Shown here one piece after another: positions 427-16,509 of a stretch of 41,334 bases of DNA. Location of the stretch: the IMG/VR virus record IMGVR_UViG_3300045988_110748, one strand, 5' to 3'. The stretch is from a virus. Under the pieces are notes generated by a model that saw only the letters and a list, made by a program, of their open reading frames with translations, searched no databases and was not told the origin of the DNA. Position numbers and translations under genes: made by a program. The first letter of the stretch is position 1, and every line of letters starts with the position of its first letter.

Positions 427-2694
427 ATGGCAGACGGTAGCATAATTTTTGATACCGCATTGGACACAAGCGGCTTTGAAAAAGGAGTGCAGCAACTCGA
501 CAAAACCAATAAAGCTGCTGCAAATAGTGTGAATGAAACGTCGCGGGCGATAGAAGCACAAGTAAAAAAGGTAGAACGGCTAAAACAAGAATTACTGCTT
601 GCGCAAGATGTATATAAAGAGGCGGGGTTCAGGGGATTCAACACCGAACAAGCCGCCGTTGGCGTATACAATGCGCAGCAAGCGTTATCTAAAGCTACGG
701 CAGAACTGCGGGCGATGCAAAAAGCCGCTGATGATGTAGCCGCGGCTACCGACAAGCTCCCTCCCAGCGCGGAGAAGGCAGCAGAAGCCGCGAAGAAAGC
801 AGCCAAAGAAACCGAGGGAATAGGCAAGGCGGCGAAAAAGTCTGAAAAACAGATGGGCGGCCTTGAGAAACGGCTTGTTAGGCTTGCCCAGCGAGTTTTG
901 GTGTTTAATGTTATCTTGAAAGCCTTAAACGCATTCCGCGACTACTTGGGCAAAGCCCTGAAAACGTCAAAGGAGTTTACGGCGGCATGGAATAATTTTC
1001 GCGGGGCATTGCTTACGGCATTCCAGCCGATATGGGAGACCATATTGCCGTGGCTGACAAAATTTATAAATATTCTTGCCAAGGTTATAACGTGGGTTGC
1101 CGCGTTTTTCTCGTGGCTCACGGGCAAGAGCCTTGCCGCAAGCTCAAAAAATGCGAAAAACCTATACAAAGAAGCTAACGCGATAGAAGCCACTGGCAAG
1201 GCGGCAGACAAGGCCAAACTATCCCTTGCGGCGTTTGACGAGATAAATAACCTATCATCCAACAAGGATACTGGCAGCGGGGGCGGGACCAGCGGTGTTA
1301 CAACGCCCACGTTCGAGGTTGATACAAGCTATCTCGAAAAAGTTGAGGGCATAATGAAGAAAATCGGCGGATGGGTGCTTGCCATAGCCGCAGGGCTTGG
1401 CGCGTGGAAGATAGCAAGCGCATTTGGCGCTGACCTAAAGAAGTGCATAGGATGGTTTATGACAATATCCGGCCTTGTGCTTGGCATTACCGGCTTTTTA
1501 GACGCATGGAATGAAGGACTTAATTGGGATAATTTAATCCAGATACTCACGGGGGCGGCCTTGTTTGCTGGCGGCCTTGCTGTGCTGTTTGGCAAGGTTG
1601 GCGGTGCTATCGGGCTTATAATTGACGGCATTGCACTTATTGTAATAGGCATTAAGGAATGGGTTGAACAGGGCGAGCTAACAGACCAAGCATTTGTAGC
1701 AATAGAGGCGGGAATAATCGCAATAGGCGCGGCACTTGCATTGCTGATTAGCCCGTGGGCGTTGGTTGTCGCTGCGATCGCCGGTGTTGCGCTTGCCGTA
1801 TACAAATACTGGGACGAAATATCCGCATTTTTTAAGGGCGTTTGGGAGAAAATAAGCGCCTTTTTTGTCGGCATATGGGAGAAAGTCAAAGATATTTTCG
1901 CACCCGTAATACAATGGTTTAGCGACAACATAATAACGCCACTTGTCACATTTTTTGAGGGAATGGGCGAACGCATAGCGGCGGTATTTGAAGGCTGCTG
2001 GATAATAATTCAAGCTGTGTGGAAAATCGTTTCGGAGTGGTTTGACCAAAACGTTATCCAGCCCGTTGTGGCTTTTTTCAAGAAGCTTGGCGAGGACATT
2101 TCCCGCATATTCAAAGAGGCGTGGGAGGTAATAAAGCCGATATGGAACGCCGTGGCGGGGTGGTTTAACCAACACGTAATACAGCCAATAGTTAAGTTTT
2201 TTACCTCCGCATGGGACAAAATCAAAAATGCGTTTGTTACTGCTTTTGAAGCTATTTCGGCATTTGCAAAGAGCATTTTTAACAGCGTTATATCCATGGT
2301 AGAGGGTATTGTGAACCGCGTCATTAAAGCTATAAACGGCATAATCGGCGGGTTTAATAAGGTGGTAACGTGGGCGGCTGGGGTTATCGGCAAGGATTGG
2401 GGCGGAGTTGCGCTCCTGCCGGAAGTGCATTTGCCGAGATTGGCAGAGGGCACGGTTGTACCCGCAAATCGCGAGTTTTTAGCCATGCTGGGCGATAACA
2501 AACGCGAAACCGAAATTGTATCGCCGTTATCAACCATGAAGCAAGCGCTGAAAGAGGCGTTAAAGGAAAGCGGCATGGGCGGCAACATGAACGTTCAAGT
2601 TTTCCTTGACGGTCAAAAAGTATATGACAGCGTGGTTGACTACTCAAAGCGCGACATACGCCGCACGGGGCGATATCCGATTTTAGGAGAGTGA
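427..2694 (+). CDS. Tail tape measure protein
   Basis: 755 aa, directly after the chaperone pair. It has an N-terminal coiled coil (AEKAAEAAKKAAKE), a central Gly/Ala-rich multi-TM block, and repeated aromatic helices (FFKGVWEKISAFF, WFDQNVIQPVVAFF, WFNQHVIQPIVKFF). Confidence 0.9.
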   Translation: MADGSIIFDTALDTSGFEKGVQQLDKTNKAAANSVNETSRAIEAQVKKVERLKQELLLAQDVYKEAGFRGFNTEQAAVGVYNAQQALSKATAELRAMQKAADDVAAATDKLPPSAEKAAEAAKKAAKETEGIGKAAKKSEKQMGGLEKRLVRLAQRVLVFNVILKALNAFRDYLGKALKTSKEFTAAWNNFRGALLTAFQPIWETILPWLTKFINILAKVITWVAAFFSWLTGKSLAASSKNAKNLYKEANAIEATGKAADKAKLSLAAFDEINNLSSNKDTGSGGGTSGVTTPTFEVDTSYLEKVEGIMKKIGGWVLAIAAGLGAWKIASAFGADLKKCIGWFMTISGLVLGITGFLDAWNEGLNWDNLIQILTGAALFAGGLAVLFGKVGGAIGLIIDGIALIVIGIKEWVEQGELTDQAFVAIEAGIIAIGAALALLISPWALVVAAIAGVALAVYKYWDEISAFFKGVWEKISAFFVGIWEKVKDIFAPVIQWFSDNIITPLVTFFEGMGERIAAVFEGCWIIIQAVWKIVSEWFDQNVIQPVVAFFKKLGEDISRIFKEAWEVIKPIWNAVAGWFNQHVIQPIVKFFTSAWDKIKNAFVTAFEAISAFAKSIFNSVISMVEGIVNRVIKAINGIIGGFNKVVTWAAGVIGKDWGGVALLPEVHLPRLAEGTVVPANREFLAMLGDNKRETEIVSPLSTMKQALKEALKESGMGGNMNVQVFLDGQKVYDSVVDYSKRDIRRTGRYPILGE

Positions 2695-2698
2695 AGCA

Positions 2699-3106
2699 AT
2701 GGCATTTGAAGGATTCTTGATGAAAGCGTTTGAGACAACGTTCCCGCATAAGTATATACAGATATCGACATATCAGACCACGCCGAGCCAACGGCAAGAC
2801 CTCGACAGCTATCAGGACAGCAAAGGCAATTTGCACCGAACCGTCGTTCCGCATGACCGCTCAAAGATAGTCTTTAAGACGATTGACGACCTAAAGCTTG
2901 CTGAAAAGCAGGAAATACAGGCGTTCTTTAATGGGGCAATGACCAACGCGCGGGAACGCAAGGTAACCCTGACGTACTGGAATGACGAGGATAACATATA
3001 TAAGACGGGATCCTTTTATATTCCCGATGTTACCTACCCCATAAAGCGGATTATGGGGAACGATATCGTATATGATTCGGTTGAGTATCACCTAATCGAA
3101 TACTAA
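2699..3106 (+). CDS. Putative distal tail protein (Dit-like), small
   Basis: The call rests on position alone: it lies between the tape measure and the large tail-tip/fibre protein. The RBS GGAGAG precedes the ATG. No motif was recognised. Confidence 0.4.
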   Translation: MAFEGFLMKAFETTFPHKYIQISTYQTTPSQRQDLDSYQDSKGNLHRTVVPHDRSKIVFKTIDDLKLAEKQEIQAFFNGAMTNARERKVTLTYWNDEDNIYKTGSFYIPDVTYPIKRIMGNDIVYDSVEYHLIEY

Positions 3107-3115
3107 GGAGGGCGC

Positions 3116-5578
3116 ATGAAAAGCTGGACTGATACAGCAAAAGCGAAATGGCGGGATAGCGACTCACGCCAAATTAAGGCAGAAATTGAACTTGGGCATT
3201 ATACATGGGTGCCGCCCCCGCCCGAACCTGACGAACCGGACGTACCCGAACCCGAACCGGGGGAAGTTAAAATAGCTTACAGAATAGAGCCTGGCGAGAT
3301 TGTAGGGAACTCCGCCAAGATAGACGAGGCCATATCCGATGCGGAAACCATCAAATATGGCACGGTACAGCCCGCAGCACTTGAAATACAGATTGTCGAA
3401 GATAGCGAGGAAGTAAGTGAGGTAGAGCGGTATAGCCAACATCTGGACGGATACGTTAAAGGGCGTATCTGGGATTATGCGATAGGCCACAAGATAACGG
3501 TATATCTATGGGATACAAGTAATGTGTTTGAAATGGGGTCTCCTTATGTCGCTGAATTTTACATTGCTGGGGTTAAAGGCGAGGGCACGACAAAATTTAA
3601 GACTATTACGGCATATGACGCGCTGAGCCTTTTTGACAAAGACGTTTCCGATTGGTACAACGGCCTTGACTTCAACGGGCTTACCCTTAAAGTGTTCCGC
3701 GAGAGCCTATGTACATATTGCGGCGTGGAATTTGAGAGCGTAACGCTGCCCAACGACAGCATGACCATAAGCCGCACAATGTCCGCAACGTCCATATCGG
3801 GGCGCGATATCCTTTCTGCGTGCTGCGAACTCAACGGCTGCTGGCCTAAGATAGAGCTATGGGCAGACGTACCTCCGGACTGGGATATCTCATTCATGGG
3901 AACAATAAACAAACTCCGCTGGGTGACGCTTGGCGGCACATCGTGCGAAACGTTTGATTACAGTCAATACGACTATACTTTCCGTCCCGACAGCACCCGC
4001 GAAGAATATGACTGCAAGGGCATTAACGCCGTTGTGGTACGGGCAACCGAAGACGATGTAGGCGGGCATTACCCCGCAACCGTGCAGGATAACCCGTACA
4101 TCATACAGGGCAATTTCCTATGCTTTGGCAAGACCACGGCGGAGCTTACCACCATAGCGCAAAACATATATAACCAGATAGCGAACAAGCCATACAGGCC
4201 GCACAAAACGGTTATAACGGGGCGGCCTTACCTTGAACCGGGCGACAAGGTAACGGTGAAATTCGCCGAGGGCAACGGCGGGACATTTGACACCTATATA
4301 CTCAAGCGCATAATGACGGGCGAGGCCGCCCTGCTGGATACCTATGAAGCCAAGGGGCAAAAGGAGCATAGGGAGCAGTATGGCATATCCCAACAGATAC
4401 AGCAGATACAGGGCAGGACAAACGAACTGTCCCGCACGGTTGACGAAACCGTAAACACCATTACCCGCATCGAGTACCTCACCCCCGTTTTGTCGAAAAC
4501 CGACCCGTCAGCGGAATGGACGGACGATGAAAAGGCGGCGAAAGAGGGCTACCAATGGTTTGACGGTACTGACTTGCGCATATGGGACGGGGCGGCATGG
4601 AAGCTGACCATATACCCCGACTATAACCAAAGCACACAGCCCACAAACGCCAAGGAGGGGGAATACTGGTATAACCCGACAACGGGCGAGATAAAGAAGC
4701 TTGTCGGCGACACATGGATGGCTGATAGCACGGTATGTATCCCCACAACGTGGACGCAGACCATGCAGACACAGTTAAAGATTACCGCCGAGGGCGTACA
4801 AAGCACCGTCACAAAGGATAATATCATATCCACCATCAACCAGAGCGCGGAGAGCGTAAGCATAGACGCAAGCAAAATTGACTTGACGGGCTATGTCACA
4901 ATAAACTCCCTGAAAGCAGGGGGAACCACGCAGATTGACGGCGGGCGCATAACCACGGGTACGGTAGCGGCAGCGCGTATCGATGTTGATAATCTCTACG
5001 TTAAGCACCTGAGCGCGGCTGATGGGACATTTTCGGGAACGCTTAACGCGGTGAACGGTACTTTTACCGGAACGCTGCAAGCCGCGAGCGGCACCTTTTC
5101 ATCCCTTGACGCTGCGGGTGGGTATGTCCATTTTGGGTATGATTATATATCCGTTTACGGGGTCGAAATAGGGTGGATCCCAAGAATAGCATCGCAAATA
5201 TGTATAGTGCCATCTGGCGCAGGCATTGGCAACGTTGGTATAGGCGATTATTATTGGGACCAGGTTAAAGCTAACCGACACCCAACTGCATCATCGATAC
5301 GATACAAAAAGAACATACTCGCTGCAACTGAAACAGACTTTAGCGATATAAGCAATGTCCGCATTGTGACATTTAACAATAAAAACGGCAGCGACGCAGG
5401 GCGGCAGATGGGCGTTATTGCAGAGGAACTGTACAAAGTATTTCCGTATGCTGTGTGCCTAAATGATGCTGGTGAGCCCGACGGCGTGGAATATGGCAAG
5501 TTATCACTGCTTGCCATTGAAGCAATACAAAAACTCGAAAAGCGCGTGAAAAAACTTGAAGAAAGGAGACTTATATGA
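3116..5578 (+). CDS. Tail-associated/tail fibre protein with C-terminal intramolecular chaperone (Peptidase_S74-like) domain
   Basis: 820 aa. The C-terminal ~98 aa from nt 5282 (PTASSIRYKKNI...GVIAEELYKVFPYAV...YGKLSLLAIEAIQKLEKRVKKLE) matches the S/D-x-R-x-K autoproteolytic chaperone domain pattern of tail spikes. Confidence 0.8.
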   Translation: MKSWTDTAKAKWRDSDSRQIKAEIELGHYTWVPPPPEPDEPDVPEPEPGEVKIAYRIEPGEIVGNSAKIDEAISDAETIKYGTVQPAALEIQIVEDSEEVSEVERYSQHLDGYVKGRIWDYAIGHKITVYLWDTSNVFEMGSPYVAEFYIAGVKGEGTTKFKTITAYDALSLFDKDVSDWYNGLDFNGLTLKVFRESLCTYCGVEFESVTLPNDSMTISRTMSATSISGRDILSACCELNGCWPKIELWADVPPDWDISFMGTINKLRWVTLGGTSCETFDYSQYDYTFRPDSTREEYDCKGINAVVVRATEDDVGGHYPATVQDNPYIIQGNFLCFGKTTAELTTIAQNIYNQIANKPYRPHKTVITGRPYLEPGDKVTVKFAEGNGGTFDTYILKRIMTGEAALLDTYEAKGQKEHREQYGISQQIQQIQGRTNELSRTVDETVNTITRIEYLTPVLSKTDPSAEWTDDEKAAKEGYQWFDGTDLRIWDGAAWKLTIYPDYNQSTQPTNAKEGEYWYNPTTGEIKKLVGDTWMADSTVCIPTTWTQTMQTQLKITAEGVQSTVTKDNIISTINQSAESVSIDASKIDLTGYVTINSLKAGGTTQIDGGRITTGTVAAARIDVDNLYVKHLSAADGTFSGTLNAVNGTFTGTLQAASGTFSSLDAAGGYVHFGYDYISVYGVEIGWIPRIASQICIVPSGAGIGNVGIGDYYWDQVKANRHPTASSIRYKKNILAATETDFSDISNVRIVTFNNKNGSDAGRQMGVIAEELYKVFPYAVCLNDAGEPDGVEYGKLSLLAIEAIQKLEKRVKKLEERRLI

Positions 5579-5745
5579 ACAAAGCTGAAAAACAGGTCAT
5601 AGAGAGCATATACGCTACTTTGGAGCAGACCATGCCCGTAATATCATATCGGGACGTTGAAGCTAAGTGCGGTGTGTTGCAATCGCTCAAACGGCTATAT
5701 AACGGCGAGTTTGAGGACAAAGTGGAAAAGGAGAACGAAGCATGA
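5575..5745 (+). CDS. Hypothetical small protein (56 aa)
   Basis: ATGA overlap with the upstream stop and the downstream start. The hand-translated frame is open: MNKAEKQVIESIYATLEQT...EKENEA. It falls below the ORF-track length cutoff. Confidence 0.5.
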   Translation: MNKAEKQVIESIYATLEQTMPVISYRDVEAKCGVLQSLKRLYNGEFEDKVEKENEA

Positions 5746-6923
5746 CCTACAACATCACCCTAACCGCCAACCACCAATCTTTGACCGCCGAATATCTCCC
5801 CCTTGCCGCTGAATCCGTACAGTATCTTACCGCGCAAATAATCTGCGAAACGGAGGACTGGACAGGGCGCGAGATTAAGGCCATGTTTGGACAGGGCTGC
5901 ACGGTACACGAAGTGCCCGTGACAGGCGGGGAAATAACCGCCAAGCAGCAGCTTAACCTTACAGCGGGCGACTGGCGCGTGTGGCTTGTGGGCAACTCCG
6001 CGCGGGACGGTGAAGTAATCCCGCGCATTACCACAAACGTGGCGCACATCAGCGTAGCCCCGACAGGCGGCACGGAGGGCAATCCCTTCCCCACAATCCC
6101 GCCCGCTGTCGAGGAACAGCTGCGGGCAGACATGGGCAATCTTGCCGACTTGACCACGGAGGACAAGAGCAGCCTTGTGGCGGCGATAAACGAGGCGGCA
6201 GCGAGCGGCGGTAGCAAGGATGCCGTGACATACACCCCGCAAACCCTGACGGAAGAGCAGCAGGCGCAGGCGCGGGAGAATATCGGGGCGTACACCAAAC
6301 CCGCATCTGGCATACCCAAATCCGACCTTGCGCAGAGCGTGCAGACAAGCCTTGCAAAGGCCGATGCCGCTATATCCCTCGGCCTGACCGCCGCTACCCC
6401 CGGGCAGATAATCAAGGTCAAGGCCGTGCAGGACGGCAAGCCGACCGAATGGGAGGCGGTGGATATGCCAAGTGGAGGCGTAGAGTGGTATGAAGTTATT
6501 GACATGGAAACTGCGGAGAATGTGAACGATTTGATTATATCTACCGACAAAAACGGCAGGCCGATATCCGGGTATCACGCACTTGCGATGGTGCTGTGTT
6601 TTGAGATTCCGGCAGATAGCACGCAAACGTCAGCTGGCGGAAACATCTGGGTGTACCCGATGTCCGACAATTACCTGCCCAGTGGAATTCGTACTATAAT
6701 AACCGTCGCTGGCTGGAAAACTATTACCAGAACTTTCAATTTTTTGTTTGCTGGTTCCAATCGTGTGATATTTATTTCGAGCGCAAGTAACGCGGTAACA
6801 TTTAATGAAGATTATAATAATATTTTTAATGGTATTAGATTATATGTAAACGGTGCTAATGACCACTTGCCCACAGGAACGAAGATACGCTGTTTGGTTT
6901 TATCGAAAGGATGGATGGCATGA
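5742..6923 (+). CDS. Tail fibre / receptor-binding-like protein
   Basis: 393 aa in the tail-fibre region. The motif NLADLTTEDKSSLVAAINEAA resembles the conserved fibre-shaft motif seen in many Gram-positive phage fibres. The C-terminal part is beta-rich. Confidence 0.55.
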   Translation: MTYNITLTANHQSLTAEYLPLAAESVQYLTAQIICETEDWTGREIKAMFGQGCTVHEVPVTGGEITAKQQLNLTAGDWRVWLVGNSARDGEVIPRITTNVAHISVAPTGGTEGNPFPTIPPAVEEQLRADMGNLADLTTEDKSSLVAAINEAAASGGSKDAVTYTPQTLTEEQQAQARENIGAYTKPASGIPKSDLAQSVQTSLAKADAAISLGLTAATPGQIIKVKAVQDGKPTEWEAVDMPSGGVEWYEVIDMETAENVNDLIISTDKNGRPISGYHALAMVLCFEIPADSTQTSAGGNIWVYPMSDNYLPSGIRTIITVAGWKTITRTFNFLFAGSNRVIFISSASNAVTFNEDYNNIFNGIRLYVNGANDHLPTGTKIRCLVLSKGWMA

Positions 6924-7084
6924 AAATTTGCGAAAACGGTATCTATCGCGACATGACCGCGGAAGAAATAGCAGAGCTTGAGCAACTTGCGGCAGAACAG
7001 CCCGCGCCCGAACCCACGGCAGAAGAAAGAATAGCGGTGCTTGAAGAAGCGTTAAATATGCTATTGTCGGGGGTGACGGAATGA
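6920..7084 (+). CDS. Hypothetical small protein (54 aa)
   Basis: ATGA overlaps on both sides. Hand translation gives MKICENGIYRDMTAEEIAELEQLAAEQPAPEPTAEERIAVLEEALNMLLSGVTE. Confidence 0.45.
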   Translation: MKICENGIYRDMTAEEIAELEQLAAEQPAPEPTAEERIAVLEEALNMLLSGVTE

Positions 7085-7278
7085 CAGACGAGCTGCGCAA
7101 AAAAATCCTTGCGTACAACCGCAGGATAAAGGCTGACCGCGCGGAGCGGGACGAGCTGCAAGCCAAGCTTGACCGTATCCGTGAGGCGGTAGATGGCATG
7201 ACGGGGCTGCCGAGCATATCAAAGCTGGCGGCATTTTTGGAGACCATCAGAGAGATTATAAAGCCAAAGGAGGGCTAA
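7081..7278 (+). CDS. Hypothetical coiled-coil protein (65 aa)
   Basis: ORF in operon context with translational coupling to the neighbouring genes. Confidence 0.5.
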   Translation: MTDELRKKILAYNRRIKADRAERDELQAKLDRIREAVDGMTGLPSISKLAAFLETIREIIKPKEG

Positions 7279-7282
7279 AATA

Positions 7283-8026
7283 ATGAAAAGATACTTTGCA
7301 ATGGTGCTTGCCGTTGTGCTGCTGTGCATATGCACGGGCGCAATGGCTATGGGCTGGGTGCGCACGGATAATCCGCCCCCGACTTATACCGTGACCGTCA
7401 CTAAGCTGGACAAGGTGGCGACCACCAGCGGCGCGGCCTATACCCCTGCACCGGGCAAGGCTGCTACAGTCGGCACGGTGGTGTACTTTACGGCAAAATT
7501 TTTGGATGCCGAAGGCAATCCCGTGCAGGGCACTATCAATCTTACGGATATGGACGTGCTGTATCTTGACGGCGATGTAGTCGCCGCGATAGTCACAGGC
7601 GCATACCCCGCCGTGCGGGCGGTATACAAGTATACTACCCCATTGGCGGAGCTGACCTATGACGGCAAGCCCGTGACCATAAGCGGGGATACCGTGACCA
7701 TAGGCAGCTTGACATTCATCCGCCGCAATGGCGTGGCGGTAGATGTGTCCATAGCGGGCGGCCTTGCCGACCTGACCCGCGAGCTGAACGCGCTGAATAT
7801 GACGCTTGACAACATCTACGCGGGCAAGATATACATGGACGATGCTGCGCTTGTGGCAAATCTCGGGCAGCACATCAAAGCCGAGGCTACGGCAGTATGG
7901 GGTGCTGATGGCGTGGTAGTGCGCACACCCGACTTGCCGCAGACTGGATCCGCGCCCGTGTATATAGGCTATATAATGATTCTTGCCGCGCTGGCCCTGG
8001 GAGTAAGAGTATGGGCGAAAAGGTAA
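7283..8026 (+). CDS. Secreted LPXTG cell-wall-anchored surface protein
   Basis: N-terminal signal peptide MKRYFAMVLAVVLLCICTGAMA. C-terminal sorting signal LPQTGS (7934-7948), followed by the hydrophobic stretch APVYIGYIMILAALALGV and the basic tail RVWAKR. Confidence 0.8.
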   Translation: MKRYFAMVLAVVLLCICTGAMAMGWVRTDNPPPTYTVTVTKLDKVATTSGAAYTPAPGKAATVGTVVYFTAKFLDAEGNPVQGTINLTDMDVLYLDGDVVAAIVTGAYPAVRAVYKYTTPLAELTYDGKPVTISGDTVTIGSLTFIRRNGVAVDVSIAGGLADLTRELNALNMTLDNIYAGKIYMDDAALVANLGQHIKAEATAVWGADGVVVRTPDLPQTGSAPVYIGYIMILAALALGVRVWAKR

Positions 8027-8688
8027 AGGAATTTTTGGCTTACCTTGAAAGCCACATCGGCGACGCTTACGTCTGGGGCGCGCAGGGCGAAAGGGTAGAC
8101 AACCGCGCCGACCTTGAAAAATGGGTGCGGCGCAAGGAAACTTCGCGGGCAAATGCCGAACGCGCCCTTGCATACATCAAAAAAGCCACCAAAACGCCGC
8201 TGTACGCCTTTGATTGCAGCGGCCTTATCATTCATTGGCTGCGTGACATAAAAGGGCTGATTGACGGTGATACAAGTGCCGCAGGACTGTACAGACAATG
8301 TACCAAAAAGGGCAAGCTTGCCGCGTGGCAGATGCAGCCTGGCGACCTTGTATTTAGGTACAGCTTCGCCAAAGGCAAAATGGGACACGTTGGCGTATAT
8401 GTCGACAACGGCATGGTGATAGAGGCGCAAGGCCGTGATGCTGGTGTAGTGATGCGCCATCTGTCTTGCGGCGGCTGGACGCATCAGGGCAGACACCCCG
8501 CGCTGGCCGAGGATACCGCTCCAACTGTCTTTAGGCTGACATCGCCCATGATGCGCGGCGAAGCTGTCAAGGCTATGCAGACCGCGCTGAATGCTTGCGG
8601 CTACGATTGCGGCAACGCCGATGGAATATGCGGCAAAGCCACAATGGCGGCTGTAAAGGCCTTTGCAACAGCCCACGCGGAGGTGTAG
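8011..8688 (+). CDS. Endolysin: NlpC/P60 peptidase + peptidoglycan-binding domain
   Basis: YVWGAQGE, FDCSGLIIHWL (catalytic Cys) and GHVGVYVDNGMVIEAQG (His) form the NlpC/P60 pattern. The C-terminal GEAVKAMQTALNACGYDCGNADGICGKATMAAVKAF is PG_binding_1-like. Confidence 0.9.
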   Translation: MGEKVKEFLAYLESHIGDAYVWGAQGERVDNRADLEKWVRRKETSRANAERALAYIKKATKTPLYAFDCSGLIIHWLRDIKGLIDGDTSAAGLYRQCTKKGKLAAWQMQPGDLVFRYSFAKGKMGHVGVYVDNGMVIEAQGRDAGVVMRHLSCGGWTHQGRHPALAEDTAPTVFRLTSPMMRGEAVKAMQTALNACGYDCGNADGICGKATMAAVKAFATAHAEV

Positions 8689-8691
8689 CCC

Positions 8692-9006
8692 GTGGAATGG
8701 TGGGGATGGTGTGCATCAATACTGGGGGCTATCGTCCTTATCGCGCAGGGCATAAAGGCGATAAGGGAAATAATAGCCCCTGCATTATCTATGCGGGAGA
8801 AGCTTGACAAGGTGATTGAGCATGATTCAAACGATTTGAAAAGATTTGATGAAATCAACACAAAATTTGCACGGCAGGAAGCCACAAATCAGGCTATTAT
8901 AACCGGCTTTGTGGCATTGATAAACCATGAGATTGACGGTAATGGAATTGACGGGCTGAAAAACGCCCGTGCGGAGCTTTTGCAACACATAATCGAAAGG
9001 AGATAA
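8692..9006 (+). CDS. Membrane protein of the lysis cassette (holin-like, N-terminal TM + coiled coil)
   Basis: GTG start after GGAGGTG. It has one TM segment (WWGWCASILGAIVLIAQGI) followed by a helical tail. It lies between the endolysin and the holin. Confidence 0.55.
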   Translation: MEWWGWCASILGAIVLIAQGIKAIREIIAPALSMREKLDKVIEHDSNDLKRFDEINTKFARQEATNQAIITGFVALINHEIDGNGIDGLKNARAELLQHIIERR

Positions 9007-10132: not shown

Positions 10133-10417
10133 TTAGCGGTTCAGCGTTTCGGCGGCGTGCTTGGCTACTGCCGCGTCATAAGCGGATTCGCAGTCCTCAA
10201 AGCTATCAAAGTCTATATCCAGCTCAAAGCACAGCGCCTCGACAAGATTCGGTTCCCACTCGGCATCGTCGTCTATGGCCGCTATAAGCTCATCTGCCGT
10301 AGCCGCGCGGACTTCGCTGCGGGGGAAGTCTTTTTCCGCTACCCGCCACATGGGGATAAAATCTTCGCCATATTGCTCATAAGTCTCGGTGCCTTCAATC
10401 GCTTTGTAAACCTTCAT
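10133..10417 (-). CDS. Hypothetical strongly acidic small protein (94 aa)
   Basis: RBS GAGGGAG before the ATG. It lies directly downstream of a consensus promoter. The sequence is D/E-rich (AAIDDDAEWEPN, ELDIDFDSFEDCE). Confidence 0.65.
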   Translation of the reverse strand: MKVYKAIEGTETYEQYGEDFIPMWRVAEKDFPRSEVRAATADELIAAIDDDAEWEPNLVEALCFELDIDFDSFEDCESAYDAAVAKHAAETLNR

Positions 10418-10465
10418 TTTTAACTCCCTCTGGGGCTTTTGCCCCTTGCTTTATCTTATGGCTAT

Positions 10466-10511
10466 ATTATACAGCAGATTTTATACTTTGTCAAGCGTTT
10501 TGCCTGACAAA
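10466..10511 (-). promoter_or_regulatory. Consensus promoter (copy A) with palindromic operator over the -35
   Basis: On the - strand: TTGACA (10489-10494), 17 nt, TATAAT (10466-10471). The palindrome TTTGTCA-N11-TGACAAA spans 10487-10511. Confidence 0.7.
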
Positions 10512-10529
10512 GTTAAAAATATTTTTGCC

Positions 10530-11009
10530 CTACATATATATGCCGAAAACCTCTGCCAATGTGGCTTTGTGCTTTTCGGGGATTGGCCGCTTCCCGCCTG
10601 TCCAGTCGGATACGGACTGGCGGGTCATGCCGCAAGCAGCGCCGACTTTTTCCAGCGTCAGCCCCTTTTCGCGCATTTTTGCCGCAAGGTATTCGGGGTC
10701 GCTAAGGATGGGCGCGGCCTTACCGCGATAAAAAGCCAAGTCCCACATACATTGCTGCTGCGCGCTTATGACCTTATCACCATCGTCAAAATCTTCGGGC
10801 GCAAGCGGCTGGATCGCGTCGCTTATGGCGCGATCAAGGGGGCGCGTCATCTTGCGGGCGGCCATAAGCCACCGCATGGACAGCGCGAAACCGTGTGCCG
10901 GACGGCGTTGCGCCTCCGCGAATAACGCTGGCTCGCTAAACTTATCGGGGCTGATGTGCCACATCAGCCCGTAGATGTACCCAAGTGTTTTTACTGCTTC
11001 ATCTCGCAT
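10530..11009 (-). CDS. HTH (XRE-like) DNA-binding protein, C-terminal HTH
   Basis: The C-terminal KGLTLEKVGAACGMTRQSVSDWTGGKRPIPEKH is a helix-turn-helix pattern. It is the second gene of the operon from promoter copy B. Confidence 0.7.
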   Translation of the reverse strand: MRDEAVKTLGYIYGLMWHISPDKFSEPALFAEAQRRPAHGFALSMRWLMAARKMTRPLDRAISDAIQPLAPEDFDDGDKVISAQQQCMWDLAFYRGKAAPILSDPEYLAAKMREKGLTLEKVGAACGMTRQSVSDWTGGKRPIPEKHKATLAEVFGIYM

Positions 11010-11025: not shown

Positions 11026-11634
11026 TTATTTTAATAACATGGGCAGCAGCGCGTCGCGATTTTCCATTATGTACTCCCAGCACTGCCGTATCATAGCGGG
11101 CTGTATGGCTTCCCTGCTGCCGAATACCTCTATTTGCCGCCCGCTGAGTAGCTCTATGCCGACAAGGCATCTCTTGGCGCGGCGCTCCTCCGGCGGCGTT
11201 GTGCCGTAGTCTCGCGCATATATGCCGTAGGCATCCACAAATTCAATTGGGGTTATGTTGGCCAAGCCGGACTCTATGTTATTGATTTCGTATTCGGCGG
11301 GTTCCTTGGCTTCTTCGTTTGGGGTTTCTTCCGTTTTCTCAGTTTCGGGTTCTTCGGTTTCGGTGCGGGGGACGTAGACCACGATGGTCTTTGTTTCTTT
11401 GTTGTAGCTGCCGCGCTCGGTCTTGCATTCGCCATAGTTTTCTTTGTATTCGCGGTAGGACATTTCTACGGCTTCGCAACCTTCGGCGTTCTCGGCGTTT
11501 ATGTGGGCTTCGTAGCAATCGGGGCAGTCGCCGTAAGTCTCATACCACTTGATTTTGCGTTCGCGTTGTTCGGTCGTACCAAACAGCTCTATCGTAGCAG
11601 TGTGGCCGCAGGAAAATGTTACATCGTACTTCAT
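11026..11634 (-). CDS. Hypothetical protein with N-terminal Cys/His cluster and acidic linker
   Basis: 202 aa with RBS GAAGGGAG. It contains SCGH...CPDCYEAH and a Glu/Thr/Pro-rich linker. No family was recognised. Confidence 0.7.
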   Translation of the reverse strand: MKYDVTFSCGHTATIELFGTTEQRERKIKWYETYGDCPDCYEAHINAENAEGCEAVEMSYREYKENYGECKTERGSYNKETKTIVVYVPRTETEEPETEKTEETPNEEAKEPAEYEINNIESGLANITPIEFVDAYGIYARDYGTTPPEERRAKRCLVGIELLSGRQIEVFGSREAIQPAMIRQCWEYIMENRDALLPMLLK

Positions 11635-11684
11635 AATTTCTAACTCCCTTCGGGCTTGTCGCCCTTGCTTTATCTTATGATCAT

Positions 11685-11730
11685 ATTATACATCGGCCTG
11701 CTCTATTTGTCAAGCGTTTTGCTTGACAAA
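11685..11730 (-). promoter_or_regulatory. Consensus promoter (copy B) with palindromic operator over the -35
   Basis: On the - strand: TTGACA (11708-11713), 17 nt, TATAAT (11685-11690). The palindrome TTTGTCA-N11-TGACAAA spans 11706-11730. It is a near-duplicate of 10418-10530. Confidence 0.7.
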
Positions 11731-11772
11731 ATTAAAAATATTTTTGCCCGCTAAATGCCCTATAAAATCCCT

Positions 11773-11803
11773 CCCCGCGCCCTGAGCGCGGGGCATATTT
11801 TTT
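11773..11803 (+). terminator. GC hairpin + T-run (terminator/insulator or leader structure) upstream of cargo operon
   Basis: CCCCGCGC-cctga-GCGCGGGG followed by CATATTTTTT. Confidence 0.5.
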
Positions 11804-11833
11804 GCGAAAATAAGGCATAAGGAGGCGATAAAA

Positions 11834-12271
11834 ATGTGGAATCCCAATCCCTTTTTTGGCGGCTATCAGCAGCCCCAACAGTATCAGCAGCCCGTGCGCG
11901 CCCAAGTCCCCCAAGTCAATGGCGAGGGCGGAGCCAAGGCGTACAGCCTTGCGCCTAATAGCAGCATCCTGCTGCTGGACACCACCGCGCCCATAGTCTG
12001 GCACAAGTGTACCGACAGCGCGGGGTATCCTACACTGACCCCGTACACCATCACACCGTATCAGCCCGCACCGCCGGTGGACATAAATGACCTTGCGGCG
12101 AGAATATCAAAATTGGAGGACAAATTAAATGCCGAATCCCATACTGCAAGCAATGAAAGCTGGAAGCCAGCAGACCCCGCAAATATCCCCGCAGCTAATC
12201 GCCCAGGCCAAAAGCATGATGGGGATGCCCGCGCAAATGCAGCAGGTAATGCGGATGCTCGGCGGGCGTGA
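11834..12271 (+). CDS. Hypothetical Gln/Pro-rich protein
   Basis: RBS AAGGAGG. The N-terminus is MWNPNPFFGGYQQPQQYQQP, followed by a folded-looking core and a coiled-coil segment (LAARISKLEDKL). The last ~47 codons overlap the next gene and look out-of-frame-like. Confidence 0.5.
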   Translation: MWNPNPFFGGYQQPQQYQQPVRAQVPQVNGEGGAKAYSLAPNSSILLLDTTAPIVWHKCTDSAGYPTLTPYTITPYQPAPPVDINDLAARISKLEDKLNAESHTASNESWKPADPANIPAANRPGQKHDGDARANAAGNADARRA

Positions 12272-12347
12272 CCCCCAGCAGATGTTTTACAGCCTGTGCC
12301 AGCAAAAAGGCATAGACCCTGAAAGCATCTTATCACAGATACGATAA
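12129..12347 (+). CDS. Hypothetical Gln/Met-rich helical protein (72 aa)
   Basis: RBS GGAGGA lies 8 nt upstream of the ATG. An in-frame TAA sits immediately before the start. The sequence has protein-like composition. Confidence 0.6.
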   Translation: MPNPILQAMKAGSQQTPQISPQLIAQAKSMMGMPAQMQQVMRMLGGRDPQQMFYSLCQQKGIDPESILSQIR

Positions 12348-12399
12348 ATCACGCGCGATTTATATACCAAAAAATTAAATTTGTGAAGGAGAAAAGACA

Positions 12400-13026
12400 A
12401 TGGATAATGTACCCTCTTTGGCGGATATCGCCGCCGTGACAGACAAAAATGACGGCCTTGGCGGCAGCATGGGCGGAGGATTCTGGATCTTCGCGTTAAT
12501 CGTTCTCCTCGCCATGATGGGCGGAGGCTTTGGCGGCTGGGGCAATCGCGGCAACGGTGACTACGGCCAGTACGCGACCGCAGCGGCGCAACAGGAAATC
12601 CTTTTCGGCCAGCATTTTGGCCAGCTTAATGACCGCTTGACCAACATTGGCAACGGCGTATGCAGCCTTGGCTACGACATGCAGGGCAATATCGGCCAGT
12701 TGGGCAAAGAGATGGCCTTGGCGCAGAACGGCACGAATATGACCATAATGCAATCCGCGAACGGCATACAGTCCCAGATGGCGGAGTGCTGCTGCGCCGT
12801 GCAGCGCGGCATGGATGCCATCAACGCCAATATCGACGCAAAATTCGCGGCTCTTGAAAAGGCACAGCTTGAGCAGCGCATAGCACAGCTTGAGCAGGCC
12901 AATAACCAGCTCTTTGTGCGCGAGCAGCTGACGGGCGTGGTACGCTACCCCAACGGCTACACTTACAACGCCGGGAATAGCCCGTTTTGCGGCTCCGGCT
13001 GCGGCTGCGGCAATAGCTGCTGCTAA
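12400..13026 (+). CDS. Hypothetical membrane protein: Gly-rich N-terminus + TM, coiled coil, Cys-rich C-terminus
   Basis: RBS AAGGAGA. Features are GGSMGGGFWIFALIVLLAMMGGGFGGWGNRGNG, an internal CCC, QLEQRIAQLEQANNQL, and the terminal CGSGCGCGNSCC. Confidence 0.75.
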   Translation: MDNVPSLADIAAVTDKNDGLGGSMGGGFWIFALIVLLAMMGGGFGGWGNRGNGDYGQYATAAAQQEILFGQHFGQLNDRLTNIGNGVCSLGYDMQGNIGQLGKEMALAQNGTNMTIMQSANGIQSQMAECCCAVQRGMDAINANIDAKFAALEKAQLEQRIAQLEQANNQLFVREQLTGVVRYPNGYTYNAGNSPFCGSGCGCGNSCC

Positions 13027-13061
13027 GACATGACACACTATCCGGCATTGCCGTGACTATC

Positions 13062-13089
13062 GGGGCGGCTTAGACCGCCCCTTGATTAT
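13062..13089 (+). terminator. Intra-operon hairpin (weak terminator/attenuator)
   Basis: GGGGCGG-cttaga-CCGCCCC followed by TTGATTAT. Confidence 0.4.
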
Positions 13090-13103
13090 GAAAGGAGAAA
13101 ATT

Positions 13104-13514
13104 ATGGCTTGTAAAAATATTTGCCAACTTTGCCCACGTCTTATCATATCCCAGTCCGTGACATTTGTGGCGGGTACTGGGCTTATTATCAATCTGCCCG
13201 CAGGAGTGTACGCCAACGGCGAGAAGTATTGCATCGTTGTGGCGCAGAGCATACCCGATACCACCACCATATCCGCGCCCGTATATATCACCATCGGCAC
13301 AGGCACGGCACAGTATCCCCTTACCAACCGCTGCTGCGCACAGGTTACCGCGTGCAGCATGCGCAAGCGCACCAAATACAGCACCGTGGTATCCACCACC
13401 CCCACGGGCGGGACGTTTAAGCTGCTCGGCAACCCACCTTGCGCACCGAATAACGACTTGACGGGGCTGACTGGCGGCACGGTCGCCACCGTAGCGGAGG
13501 CGGCTAAAAAATGA
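13104..13514 (+). CDS. Hypothetical Cys-rich beta-type protein (136 aa)
   Basis: RBS AAAGGAGA. The N-terminus is MACKNICQLCP. There is an internal RCCAQVTAC and a C-terminal PPCAP. The segments between are Thr/Val/Ile-rich. Confidence 0.7.
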   Translation: MACKNICQLCPRLIISQSVTFVAGTGLIINLPAGVYANGEKYCIVVAQSIPDTTTISAPVYITIGTGTAQYPLTNRCCAQVTACSMRKRTKYSTVVSTTPTGGTFKLLGNPPCAPNNDLTGLTGGTVATVAEAAKK

Positions 13515-13819
13515 AGCTGATTAACGATTTATCCGACCAGATTTGCGAAGAAATCGCGGACGCTGAAAAGTATGCTAAGTGGGCGCTTACGGTCAAGGAC
13601 GATATGCCAACCGTAGCGCAGACCCTGTACACCATATCGGGGCAGGAGCTTACCCACGCATCCATGCTGCACGACCTTGTAGTCCGCGCCATATCGGACT
13701 ACAAGGCCAAGCATGGCGACCCGCCCGCCGATATGCTGACGCTGTACAAATATTTGCACGGCAAGCAAATTGAAAAGACCGAGTGTGTAAAAAGGTATCA
13801 GGAGATGTATAAGGCGTAA
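13511..13819 (+). CDS. Hypothetical ferritin-like/four-helix-bundle protein
   Basis: ATGA coupling to the upstream gene. It is helical, with EEIADAEKY and QELTH (E...ExxH half-site pattern). Confidence 0.7.
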   Translation: MKLINDLSDQICEEIADAEKYAKWALTVKDDMPTVAQTLYTISGQELTHASMLHDLVVRAISDYKAKHGDPPADMLTLYKYLHGKQIEKTECVKRYQEMYKA

Positions 13820-13836
13820 TCTATTTACATTATCCT

Positions 13837-13860
13837 CTGGCAACTTTCTGGCAACTTTTT
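13837..13860 (+). repeat. Tandem CTGGCAACTTT x2 (attP arm-type site candidate), copy 1
   Basis: CTGGCAACTTTCTGGCAACTTTTT. A near-identical 24-25-mer recurs at 14056-14080. Confidence 0.6.
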
Positions 13861-13978: not shown

Positions 13979-14007
13979 AGCACTCATAAAAATGGGTGCT
14001 TTTTCTT
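13979..14007. terminator. Bidirectional terminator between cargo operon and integrase
   Basis: AGCACTCA-taaaaa-TGGGTGCT stem with one G-T wobble. It is flanked by an A-rich stretch upstream and TTTTCTT downstream. Confidence 0.65.
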
Positions 14008-14024: not shown

Positions 14025-15167
14025 TTAATCGCCGCCGTTGCCGTGCGCTTTGGGGCTGGCAACTTTGCGGCAACTTTTTTCAAATGCGCCCTGTAACTGT
14101 TCTGCACTGTATTTTTCCTTCTGCGCCGAAAGGTGTGAATATATTTCAAGCGTGATTTTCGCGTTGGCGTGGCCTAAATATCGCTGCGCCGAAAGCACGT
14201 CCACACCCGCGTTATACAGCACGCTGGCGTAATTGTGTCGAAGGTAATGCGGGGTTATAACCGATATCATCCGCCCGCCTTTTTCAATCGCGTCAATCTC
14301 CAGCGCGATATCGTACAGCCGCGCCATCAAATCGTCCCATAGGCGGTATCGCGTCGCATTGCGGTGATATGACCCTGTGGACGACGGTACTACATACGAC
14401 TGCGGCAGACCGCGCACGGGGCGCAGCTTGTCAGCCAGTTCGCGCGGCATGGGTATCGTCCGCACGGACTTATCCGTTTTGGGTGCATCTATTTCCCCCG
14501 TCTTGCCCGCCGCCTGCTGTTCAACGCGAATTGTCCCCGCCTTGAAGTCAACGTGCCGCCATTGCAGGCCGCAAGCCTCACCGTAGCGCATGCCCGTGTA
14601 ATATAGCAGCGCAAGCATTAGCGTGCCGTCCTCGTCCATCAGGCGCAGAACCGCATCCGTCTCCGCGTCCGTCAATGCCCTGCGCGTCTCCTTTGGCTTG
14701 GACGGAATTGTAAGCCCGACAGTGATGTCACGCGGGATAAGCCCCTGACTATACGCCCGCTGAAATACCCCGCGCAGGATTGTAGATATGTTGCCTATTA
14801 TGGCCGCGCACGTGTCGGCCTTGGCGTTCAGCAGCCGCTGTAAATCCTCCGTGGTAATTGCCGTCAGCCGCCGCCCCGCCAACGCGGGGAAGATGTGCTT
14901 ATATAGTGCCGTGCGGTATGACATTTGCGCGGATACGCCTATATGCGGCTGCTTATACACCTCATACCATGTCAGCGCGTATCGGTCAAAAAGTATTCCC
15001 TCCGGCACTGCGTTTGCTCCCGTGACGTACTTTTCCCGCGCCGCCGCCTTAGCCGCTTCCAATTCTTTTTTGGTGCGCCCTGATACATACTTGACTATGC
15101 TTTTCCCGCTTGCGTCCGTGCCTACAGTTATTTTTGCACGGTAGCGCCCATCTTTTTGCTTCGCCAT
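14025..15167 (-). CDS. int: Tyrosine recombinase / phage integrase
   Basis: 380 aa. An N-terminal SAM-like domain is followed by the catalytic pattern TGMRYGEACGL...HYLRHNYASVL...LGHANAKITLEIYSHL (R, H-x-x-R, Y). Confidence 0.95.
   Translation of the reverse strand: MAKQKDGRYRAKITVGTDASGKSIVKYVSGRTKKELEAAKAAAREKYVTGANAVPEGILFDRYALTWYEVYKQPHIGVSAQMSYRTALYKHIFPALAGRRLTAITTEDLQRLLNAKADTCAAIIGNISTILRGVFQRAYSQGLIPRDITVGLTIPSKPKETRRALTDAETDAVLRLMDEDGTLMLALLYYTGMRYGEACGLQWRHVDFKAGTIRVEQQAAGKTGEIDAPKTDKSVRTIPMPRELADKLRPVRGLPQSYVVPSSTGSYHRNATRYRLWDDLMARLYDIALEIDAIEKGGRMISVITPHYLRHNYASVLYNAGVDVLSAQRYLGHANAKITLEIYSHLSAQKEKYSAEQLQGAFEKSCRKVASPKAHGNGGD
14056..14080 (+). repeat. Tandem (C/G)(T/C)GGCAACTTT x2, copy 2 (inside the integrase 3' end)
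   Basis: CTGGCAACTTTGCGGCAACTTTTTT is a direct repeat of 13837-13860, about 219 bp away. Confidence 0.6.
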
Positions 15168-16377: not shown

Positions 16378-16408
16378 TTCATCACTCCCCTTTGCTTTAT
16401 CTACTGAT

Positions 16409-16437
16409 ATTATACACCACATCTTATACCAAATCAA
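16409..16437 (-). promoter_or_regulatory. Leftward switch promoter (copy C of the shared promoter/leader)
   Basis: On the - strand: TTGATT (16432-16437), 17 nt, TATAAT (16409-16414). The leader AGATAAAGCAAAGGGGAG resembles copies A and B. Confidence 0.65.
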
Positions 16438-16480
16438 GAATAAAAGTTCCACGAACGGAACAAAAAAATTAAAAAAGTTA

Positions 16481-16509
16481 TTGACAAGTGCCTATGATGG
16501 TATTATAAT
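16481..16509 (+). promoter_or_regulatory. Rightward early promoter (PR-like)
   Basis: TTGACA (16481-16486), 17 nt, TATAAT (16504-16509). ATGATGGTATT is repeated at 16493-16503 and 16526-16536. Confidence 0.75.

Follow-up and report, generated by a model that had tools for sequence, protein, structure and literature searches.

What do five small rightward genes beside an integrase gene contribute to a phage, and do they belong to that phage alone? The question is raised by positions 11834 to 13819 of the IMG/VR virus record IMGVR_UViG_3300045988_110748. The window is the whole stretch analyzed, 41,334 nucleotides (nt). It is a siphophage genome of ~41 kb and encodes tape measure, tail proteins, and an endolysin-like protein at 427-8688. 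A sequence-only reading had suggested, as a hypothesis, that the five genes are lysogenic-conversion cargo that builds a disulfide-cross-linked envelope, spore-coat, or surface assembly. We find that they are this genome's version of a phage accessory module that is widespread, self-contained, and horizontally mobile. Genes p1, p2, and p3 are its invariant core, and slots 4 and 5 are exchangeable. The five genes of the window are as follows.

p1, 11834-12271, + strand: 145 amino acids (aa), N-terminal start MWNPNPFFGGYQQPQQYQQP.
p2, 12129-12347, + strand: 72-aa Met/Gln-rich helical protein.
p3, 12400-13026, + strand: 208 aa, contains GGSMGGGFWIFALIVLLAMMGGGFGGWGNRGNG and an internal CCC, C terminus CGSGCGCGNSCC.
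p4, 13104-13514, + strand: 136 aa, N-terminal cysteines C3, C7, and C10.
p5, 13511-13819, + strand: 102 aa, start overlapping the p4 stop (ATGA).

The listing of open reading frames (ORFs) contains all five genes, and the motifs quoted earlier for them lie where they had been placed. The exact window proteins are each present on about 165-186 contigs. Homologous clusters, counted at 90% identity, number 3,309 for p3 and 3,007 for p4, and p4 has 258 representatives at 50% identity. The ORFs are genuine genes rather than chance ORFs, because p3 and p4 each have >3,000 homologous clusters, the contig counts are high, and the p5 family has invariant residues. p2 begins inside p1, in a different frame, and the two genes share 143 nt at the 3' end of p1. 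They also overlap or abut in related loci. A human-faecal phage contig is 92% identical to the window across most of the 2.5 kb queried.

Assemblies, annotated phages, and viral contigs supplied the 87 loci of the module survey. In 87/87 loci spanning the region, the trio p1-p2-p3 was found together and in the same order, so the co-occurrence check suggested with the sequence-only reading came out for a conserved unit. The same gene order is kept alongside differing tail genes, endolysins, and serine or tyrosine recombinases. The location varies. The module lies after the lysis genes in Clostridia siphophages and next to a holin in a crAss-like phage. It lies among head genes in PQ006093 and an Enterocloster prophage; in PQ006093 and locus L118 its neighbors are portal/minor-head genes on one side and scaffold/capsid genes on the other. 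It lies in the early/recombination regions of Clostridium phage XP41-N3 and Bacteroides phage C3_41T2LP. The block had been described as a moron-like accessory unit beside attP. Its terminator-like hairpins and its conservation as a unit agree with that description; the int/attP position is not a property of the module, because the location varies. A tyrosine integrase gene does adjoin the block in the window, and attP itself was not located.

Searches of p1-p5 against Pfam, PHROGs, NCBIfam, and PADLOC gave no match to a virion, lysis, replication, or defense family beyond marginal partial ones. Homology to a known virion or lysis family would have contradicted the earlier proposal of a nonstructural cargo, and none of the five proteins matched one in these collections. 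No characterized system in Pfam, NCBIfam, PADLOC, PHROGs, or PDB contains the core.

p3 matches phrog_16490 (function unknown) over residues 11-152 (E = 1.4e-14). The depositors of archaeal-virus records assigned phrog_16490 to their p3 homologues. The protein has a short acidic N-tail, a Gly/Trp-flanked transmembrane (TM) segment at about residues 27-47, and then an Asn/Gln-rich helical domain. Residues 130-132 of its C-terminal part are an invariant CCC. A VVRYPNGYTYNAG-SPFCG motif is also conserved there, and a Cys/Gly tail terminates the bacterial-virus members of the family. The CCC triplet, C88, Y92, and P184/Y189/N190 are invariant. Ten divergent members from bacterial and archaeal viruses each have one hydrophobic core and 7-14 cysteines, all of them C-terminal to the core. 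The helical periodicity of the domain is strong, at 3.5-3.6 residues, across these ten members, and in p3 it extends over residues 56-115. Among p1-p5, a hydrophobic segment is found only in p3, and p1, p2, p4, and p5 have no signal peptide. From these features, p3 is predicted to be a single-pass membrane protein with a C-terminal helical domain that carries all of its cysteines. Sequence and profile searches of the PDB with p3, p4, and their families returned nothing meaningful.

p3 had been compared with the YjcZ sporulation peptides. No YjcZ model in Pfam or NCBIfam matched p3 at E <= 1, and we rejected this identity. The likeness to YjcZ, a Gly-rich membrane peptide of ~50 aa, is purely compositional, because p3 has 208 aa and a large C-terminal domain.

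The tail of ZorA gave weak matches to p3 at the level of a coiled coil (NCBIfam E = 0.003; PADLOC E = 9e-4, 15.6 bits). These matches raise the possibility of a defense or counterdefense system. A membrane-anchored effector with sensor or adaptor subunits would then abort competing infections or neutralize a host system. The moron-like organization, the mobility, and the two modular slots would suit such a system. We nevertheless consider it improbable. The ZorA matches are far under the curated cutoffs and cover the helical region only. No other NCBIfam model was matched, and PADLOC otherwise returned only a marginal and partial match of p4 to AbiEi (E = 0.009). The core contains no enzymatic domain (nuclease, NTPase, protease, or similar). 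Defense cargo is also not typically so strongly conserved across three phyla, in virulent as well as temperate viruses.

p1 matches phrog_21718 (function unknown) over residues 11-73 (E = 1.2e-11). Its N terminus is Gln/Pro-rich and is followed by a small conserved domain (~residues 30-75); a short stretch resembles a coiled coil, and the tail is of low complexity. A large search returned 76 homologous clusters. None of them is named, contains a Pfam domain, or is a fusion. The C-terminal motif of p2, LCQQKGIDPESIL, recurs as LLQQKGIDPNLLV and LLSKQGVDPGIVAML within p3-homologue polypeptides, just N-terminal to the TM segment. These p2-p3 fusion versions were found in Bacteroides, crAss-like, and archaeal viruses. 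Their support is a pairwise BLASTP match (E = 3e-5) and the common motif only, and a small hidden Markov model search for p2 in the fused p3 versions gave no match. p2 is tied to the N-terminal side of p3, because it is fused there in the distant versions (Rosetta-stone reasoning).

Slot 4 was compared across 84 loci. The p4 family of the window fills it in 21/84, and another family of similar size fills it in 63/84. Sequence comparison shows no relationship between the two families (hhalign probability, 0.3%). The conserved cysteines of the p4 family are C3, C10, C43, and C113. In the confident AlphaFold2 model (predicted local distance difference test score [pLDDT], 85.3), p4 has an all-beta knob-like domain at residues 12-108 and a disordered C-tail. 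p4 has no match in Pfam. A search of the model against BFVD returned its own family first, followed by the C-terminal domains of long tail-fiber, collagen-repeat, or trimeric-adhesin-stalk proteins. These fiber-tip matches had template modeling (TM) scores of about 0.47-0.54, E values from 1e-5 to 1e-3, and identities of 10-23%. A Foldseek search against the PDB gave nothing significant, and no ENA, BclA, or spore-coat structure was among the 50 matches listed. The best TM-score there was 0.45, to a chain of the Pa193 baseplate and tail-fiber complex, and was not significant. On the model, p4 appears to be a new family with a fiber-tip-like fold. The sequence-only reading had stated that no product resembles a phage structural protein. 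This statement does not hold for p4, the model of which resembles the C-terminal tips of phage fiber proteins.

p4 had also been compared with the subunits of endospore appendages. Those subunits have a jellyroll or head-neck fold, or match the DUF3992 profile, and carry an N-terminal Cys connector. p4 has an N-terminal Cys motif. It gave no Pfam, PDB-sequence, or significant fold match to any of these subunits (Ena1/Ena3 DUF3992, F-ENA, and A-ENA), and the comparison was not borne out. The architectures described for F-ENA (PMC12357932) and A-ENA (PMC13111695) do not fit the window proteins.

The alternative slot-4 family matches almost the full Pfam BclA_C profile (PF18573) at E values of ~6e-5 to 1e-4. 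The scores, 22-23.5 bits, are below the 38-bit cutoff. Against solved structures, the family matches BclA at E values from 6e-4 to 1.4e-3 and then C1q and TNF. The slot-4 proteins of the sister modules are likely distant BclA_C members, as judged from these profile matches. The window p4 was considered as a BclA_C/C1q member and rejected; it has no Pfam match, no BclA fold match, and an hhalign probability of 0.3% to the BclA_C-like family. The spore-surface resemblance noted earlier has a real basis, because BclA_C/C1q-like proteins fill the p4 slot in sister modules.

Both slot-4 families raise the possibility of a split virion fiber. p3 would be the stalk and p4 or its BclA_C-like counterpart the distal knob of an accessory head or tail fiber, joined through their Cys-rich ends. 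p1, p2, and p5 or DUF7841 would act as chaperones or adaptors, with p2 shielding the hydrophobic segment of p3. The fiber would aid the adhesion or persistence of virions in the animal gut. The fold of p4 is like the C-terminal tips of tail-fiber and collagen-repeat proteins, and the alternative slot-4 proteins are BclA_C/C1q-like. The lack of signal peptides in p1, p2, p4, and p5 is expected of virion or assembly proteins. Depositors of crAss-like genomes labeled p3 homologues "outer capsid protein/viral fiber" or "spike protein." The module lies between portal/minor-head and scaffold/capsid genes in PQ006093 and L118. We rank this explanation as the main rival of the one favored below, though still an unlikely one. 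A conserved Gly-flanked TM-like segment is unusual for a fiber protein, and in two cultured phages the module lies in an early/recombination region. Even within the head-gene block of L118, it has its own hairpin and promoter-like element. No PHROG structural category is assigned, and the crAss annotations are predictions rather than proteomics. The terms used in these annotations are absent from the crAss taxonomy paper.

Slot 5 has four kinds of occupant. These are the p5 type, DUF7841, a helical-ended protein with an Arg/Ser/Tyr-rich middle, and a longer low-complexity protein. p5 matches Pfam Rubrerythrin (PF02915) at an E value of 0.002 and 19.0 bits, under the 22.8-bit cutoff, and the sub-threshold Rubrerythrin match recurs in three divergent p5-type members. 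The p5 family profile matches BfrB and other ferritins over helices A-B (E = 1.7e-4). Residues E14, D17, Y21, E46, and H49 (E...ExxH) are invariant across seven divergent members. No second ExxH was found in p5 residues 60-102, and a complete four-helix di-iron site is not present. By these sequence comparisons, p5 is best described as a half-ferritin-like helical protein. The description of p5 as ferritin-like with an E...ExxH half-site is thus upheld by the invariant ligand motif and the match to ferritin helices A-B. Iron chemistry is not core to the module, because unrelated helical proteins fill slot 5 elsewhere.

DUF7841 accompanies p3 homologues in three unrelated groups, a Clostridia siphophage, a crAss-like phage, and a Bacteroides phage. 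Literature searches for phrog_16490 and DUF7841 returned no mention of either in the library covered. In crAss-like cr109_1 (L122), the gene at 2006-2611 is annotated "RNA polymerase sigma factor/ubiquitin-like protein." Its product is a DUF7841 protein (E = 1.7e-43) with an Arg/Tyr/Asp-rich tail. The DUF7841 gene of Bacteroides phage C3_41T2LP (L124) is at 6093-6494.

The module of the window is set off from its surroundings by the following features.

Upstream hairpin and T-run, 11773-11803, + strand: GC-rich, stems CCCCGCGC/GCGCGGGG, immediately 5' of p1.
Candidate extended -10 element TGcGAAAAT, 11803-11811, + strand: putative, read from the sequence, directly after the T-run.
Internal hairpin between p3 and p4, 13062-13081, + strand: -16.1 kcal/mol, z = -2.4, weak T-tract.
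Hairpin between p5 and the integrase gene, ~13979-14007, both strands: z = -4.4 (+ strand) and -3.3 (- strand).
Tyrosine integrase gene, 14025-15167, - strand: convergent neighbor of p5.

Folding energies and z-scores bear out all three hairpins reported earlier. The upstream hairpin at 11773-11793, followed by its T-run, has a folding energy of -17.6 kcal/mol (z = -2.4). The hairpin with its T-run (11773-11803) is terminator-like and would insulate the module. The internal hairpin may be a partial terminator or attenuator. The z-score at ~13979-14007 is low on both strands, so this element is a bidirectional terminator, which the module shares with the convergent integrase gene. No consensus -35/-10 promoter was found on the + strand.

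A GC-rich hairpin followed by a T-run is found 30-45 nt upstream of p1 in 13/30 lineages with upstream sequence, and the stem sequences are not conserved. The extended -10 pattern TGnNAnnnT follows right after the T-run in 7/13 of these hairpin lineages, versus ~6% per window by chance. Hairpin and promoter-like element are also present where the module lies inside the head-gene block (L118). By sequence pattern, the hairpin plus extended -10 has the apparent anatomy of an insulated transcription unit. A sporulation sigmaE/sigmaK-type -10 upstream of p1 was considered and rejected. None was consistent by eye, and the recurring pattern is a housekeeping-type extended -10.

The gene before p1 in most Clostridia-phage lineages encodes a 72-102-aa helix-turn-helix (HTH) protein of the sigma70-region-4/GerE type (Pfam E values from 1.5e-7 to 5e-5). 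It abuts, and is co-linear with, holin or endolysin genes. The small HTH protein may be a dedicated activator of the module. Late lytic expression rather than lysogenic conversion is suggested, because the upstream gene is co-linear with lysis genes in most Clostridia-phage lineages. No equivalent small HTH gene was found in the window, where ~2.5 kb of leftward genes lie between the module and the lysis region in its place. The small HTH gene was seen immediately upstream of p1 in loci L003, L026, L036, L059, L063, L067, L001, L002, and L121.

In six loci, p1 is preceded by a gene for a 125-126-aa protein ending YYWDTWDSG...YYW. These are L118 (4206-4586), L121 (4531-4908), L104, L109, L111, and L120. 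A longer protein in PQ006096 was annotated "C39-like peptidase" by its depositors, and the short 125-126-aa form has no Pfam match. This papain-like protein could be read as the processing enzyme of an extracellular factor released by lysis. The factor would be bacteriocin-like, or a host-directed adhesin or toxin. In most lineages the module is downstream of lysis genes, most of its components have no signal peptide, and by our own reading the N terminus of p3 is loosely like a double-glycine leader. We consider a released factor highly improbable. Members of the p3 family, with 200-330 aa and a TM segment, do not look like any known bacteriocin of class II. There is no gene for a transporter or for immunity. 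The window does not contain the papain-like gene, and the leader resemblance is noncanonical in the window p3.

Genomic copies of the module are almost wholly in Clostridia and mostly on phage-sized contigs. Complete modules were found in two cultured phages, Clostridium phage XP41-N3 and Butyrivibrio phage Ceridwen. XP41-N3 matches the profiles of p4 (E = 4e-23), p3 (E = 2.5e-7), and p2 (E = 3.6e-4). Only lytic growth of Ceridwen was observed by its authors (PMC7372960). PQ006093 carries the module and has no annotated integrase. Many crAss-like phages, Bacteroides phage C3_41T2LP, and two viruses assigned to Methanomassiliicoccales also have a member of the p3 family. The G/W-flanked TM segment and the CCC motif are kept in these distant members, and the Cys/Gly tail usually is too. 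Searches with p4- and p1-family profiles detected no homology among the neighbor genes in Bacteroides and crAss-like phages. Outside Clostridia phages, only p2-p3 and DUF7841 can therefore be claimed. Every source found is a virus from gut, rumen, feces, or sewage, and the hosts span three phyla; this would fit an environment-linked virion trait such as the fiber described above.

In the Methanomassiliicoccales virus vir215 (L126; 1933-2967), a reverse transcriptase and a tail protein are encoded just upstream of the p3 homologue. The reverse transcriptase probably belongs to a diversity-generating retroelement.

This distribution, which takes in viruses of Clostridia, Bacteroidales, and archaea, cannot be explained by a function tied to endospores, to the Gram-positive wall, or to lysogeny. 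The spore hypothesis is largely refuted by the host range. It holds that the genes are lysogenic-conversion cargo for a disulfide-cross-linked spore-coat, exosporium, or cell-surface structure in sporulating Clostridia, with proteins made in the mother cell and hence free of signals. Several features give it some appeal. BclA_C-like proteins fill slot 4 in most sister modules, the proteins are Cys rich, and a partner protein is rubrerythrin/ferritin-like. The Gly-rich TM segment is YjcZ-like in composition. A small GerE/sigma70-r4-type HTH gene lies upstream in most Clostridia lineages, and the module adjoins the integrase gene in the window. The p2-p3 core and DUF7841 are nevertheless found in phages of non-sporulating Bacteroidales, and the core is found in archaeal viruses. 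No YjcZ, Ena, Cot, exosporium, or other spore-coat family was matched by the window proteins, and there is no consistent sigmaE/sigmaK-type -10 upstream by eye. An HTH gene abutting holin/endolysin genes implies late lytic transcription. Lysogenic conversion likewise does not fit a module present in Ceridwen, seen only in lytic growth, in crAss-like phages, and in PQ006093. We regard the spore hypothesis as the least probable of the explanations weighed. The broader notion of a Cys-rich, envelope-associated assembly is still compatible with the data; its spore and conversion parts are unsupported.

The explanation that we tentatively favor, at somewhat less than even confidence, is a membrane-anchored stalk complex at the cytoplasmic membrane of the infected cell. 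It would serve superinfection exclusion or the control of lysis or egress. We hold the choice between these two activities with less confidence than the statement as a whole. p3 would insert in the cytoplasmic membrane of the infected (or lysogenic) cell as a type II protein, with its N terminus in and its C terminus out. The N-in topology is favored because the fused versions have N-terminal extensions of 45-80 aa without signal peptides. The ectodomain of p3 would oligomerize into a coiled-coil stalk on the outer face, with interchain cysteine knots. p2, and probably p1, would act on the cytoplasmic tail of p3. p4 and p5 would be swappable accessory or specificity parts. The complex would most likely block DNA entry by superinfecting phages, or tune lysis or egress. 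A membrane role during infection is favored because no structure other than the cytoplasmic membrane is shared by Clostridia, Bacteroidales, and Methanomassiliicoccales, and because the module often adjoins lysis genes.

Several points weigh against a membrane stalk complex. The AlphaFold2 model of the p3 monomer, built with 55 homologues, had a pLDDT of 44.5 and was unusable. The flanking charges leave the topology of p3 unsettled. p4 is the weak point, because a protein with no export signal cannot reach an external domain of p3 before lysis. Fiber-tip-like and BclA_C-like knobs are typical of virion fibers and favor a split fiber. Adjacency to lysis genes is weak functional evidence, because this is the usual insertion site of morons in temperate siphophages. 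Known superinfection-exclusion proteins are usually encoded by single genes and not by five-gene modules. Homology to a characterized exclusion, holin, antiholin, or spanin protein, which would support the proposed activity, was not found.

More broadly, the p1-p2-p3 module with its exchangeable partners could be an unrecognized viral apparatus of the gut viruses of Firmicutes, Bacteroidota, and methanogens. It would be either a new class of membrane gatekeeper, which controls exclusion or egress at any cytoplasmic membrane, or a two-piece Cys-knotted fiber that has spread across host domains as an animal-gut adaptation. We offer this wider proposal as a possibility on the doubtful side. Abundant though the module is, each of its components has so far carried only the label "hypothetical," a DUF number, or a PHROG of unknown function. 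Exchange across host domains within one habitat points either to action on a process common to all cells, namely, the passage of viral DNA or particles across the cytoplasmic membrane, or to gut adaptation. Either answer would give a function to a sizeable part of the dark matter of the gut virome. Annotation of the block as spore related, or as lysogenic-conversion cargo private to this phage, should be avoided. With its abundance, its reach across host domains, and its presence in three cultured phages, the module is of more interest than the first proposal implied. The three cultured phage-host pairs (XP41-N3, Ceridwen, and C3_41T2LP) make the question directly testable.

Other features of the window lie around the module. 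A direct repeat, CTGGCAACTTT(C/G)(T/C)GGCAACTTTTT, with 92% identity between its copies, is present at 13837-13860 and 14056-14079 and flanks the 3' end of the integrase gene. The repeats could be integrase arm-type or att-related sites. A unit of ~100 nt is present in three copies, at 10433-10530, 11652-11749, and 16386-16483. Each copy contains a perfect leftward sigma70 promoter (TTGACA-17-TATAAT). The first two contain the palindrome TTTGTCAAGC-N5-GCTTGACAAA; the third is more diverged and aligns in the promoter part only. The units precede leftward genes ending at 10417 and 11634 and a CI-like HTH gene ending at 16452. Together they look like a common operator regulon of lysogeny-type genes.

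Immediately upstream of the module lies a divergently transcribed gene, 11026-11634 (- strand). Its 202-aa product has a zinc-ribbon-like Cys/His motif (CGH...CPDC) at the N terminus and a middle part that is acidic and of low complexity. The protein matches phrog_16123 (function unknown) at an E value of 3.5e-11. A 104-aa ORF at 8692-9006 lies right after the endolysin-like gene. It has no assigned PHROG. It is homologous to an L118 protein (s148, 4447-4893) with an N-terminal hydrophobic segment, which is encoded just upstream of the module and has homologues in close relatives of the window. The product of 8692-9006 may be a holin or a lysis accessory protein.

Among known systems, the class III holin T of phage T4 is a close parallel to p3 in layout. 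T works with the antiholins RI and RIII, and RIII is a small soluble partner on the N-terminal side of T. p3 has ~200-220 aa, a short N-tail, one TM segment, and a large Cys-containing C-terminal domain, and it too has a small soluble partner on its N-terminal side. The Rz/Rz1 spanins are comparable in their coiled-coil ectodomain, overlapping partner genes, and frequent lysis-cassette adjacency. p1-p5 have no sequence or profile similarity to holins, antiholins, or spanins in Pfam or PHROGs. Canonical holins (Phage_holin_1 and Phage_holin_Dp1) are already encoded by separate genes beside the module in related loci. A spanin acts on the outer membrane, which the monoderm and archaeal hosts of the module lack.

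Some temperate Gram-positive phages make membrane proteins for superinfection exclusion, for example lactococcal Sie2009 and Ltp of Streptococcus thermophilus; the known ones are encoded by single genes. They are N-terminally anchored and have an extracytoplasmic domain, as predicted for p3, and the module is near int in the window. The module could likewise work at a step that all hosts share, the one at the cytoplasmic membrane. It differs in that it has no homology to these proteins, is also found in phages seen only in lytic growth, and has cytoplasmic-type partners.

The slot-4 proteins of the sister modules are small, beta rich, and Cys bearing, as is BclA, the exosporium nap protein with a C1q/TNF-like knob (PDB 1WCK, 2R6Q, and others). 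Unlike BclA, they have no collagen-like stalk and no exosporium-targeting N-terminal domain. Unlike the phage fiber tips in BFVD, p4 is free-standing and has no shaft. Within the ferritin-like superfamily (bacterioferritin and rubrerythrin; Pfam PF02915 and PF00210), p5 aligns to helices A-B, and its E and ExxH ligands are invariant. It differs in having half of the four-helix, two-site motif. The two-helix encapsulated ferritins are a possible analogue of p5, although p5 has no sequence match to them.

The morons of tailed phages described by Hendrix and colleagues are the closest match in organization. They are autonomous promoter-gene-terminator units between phage genes. The module similarly has terminator-like hairpins on both sides, a candidate promoter between the upstream hairpin and the ribosome-binding site, and a variable genomic position. 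In the window its place, with the lysis region on one side and the integrase on the other, is the classic moron site. Unlike a moron, it has five or six co-evolving genes rather than one, and a dedicated HTH gene lies upstream in most lineages. It is also conserved across virulent and temperate viruses of three host phyla.

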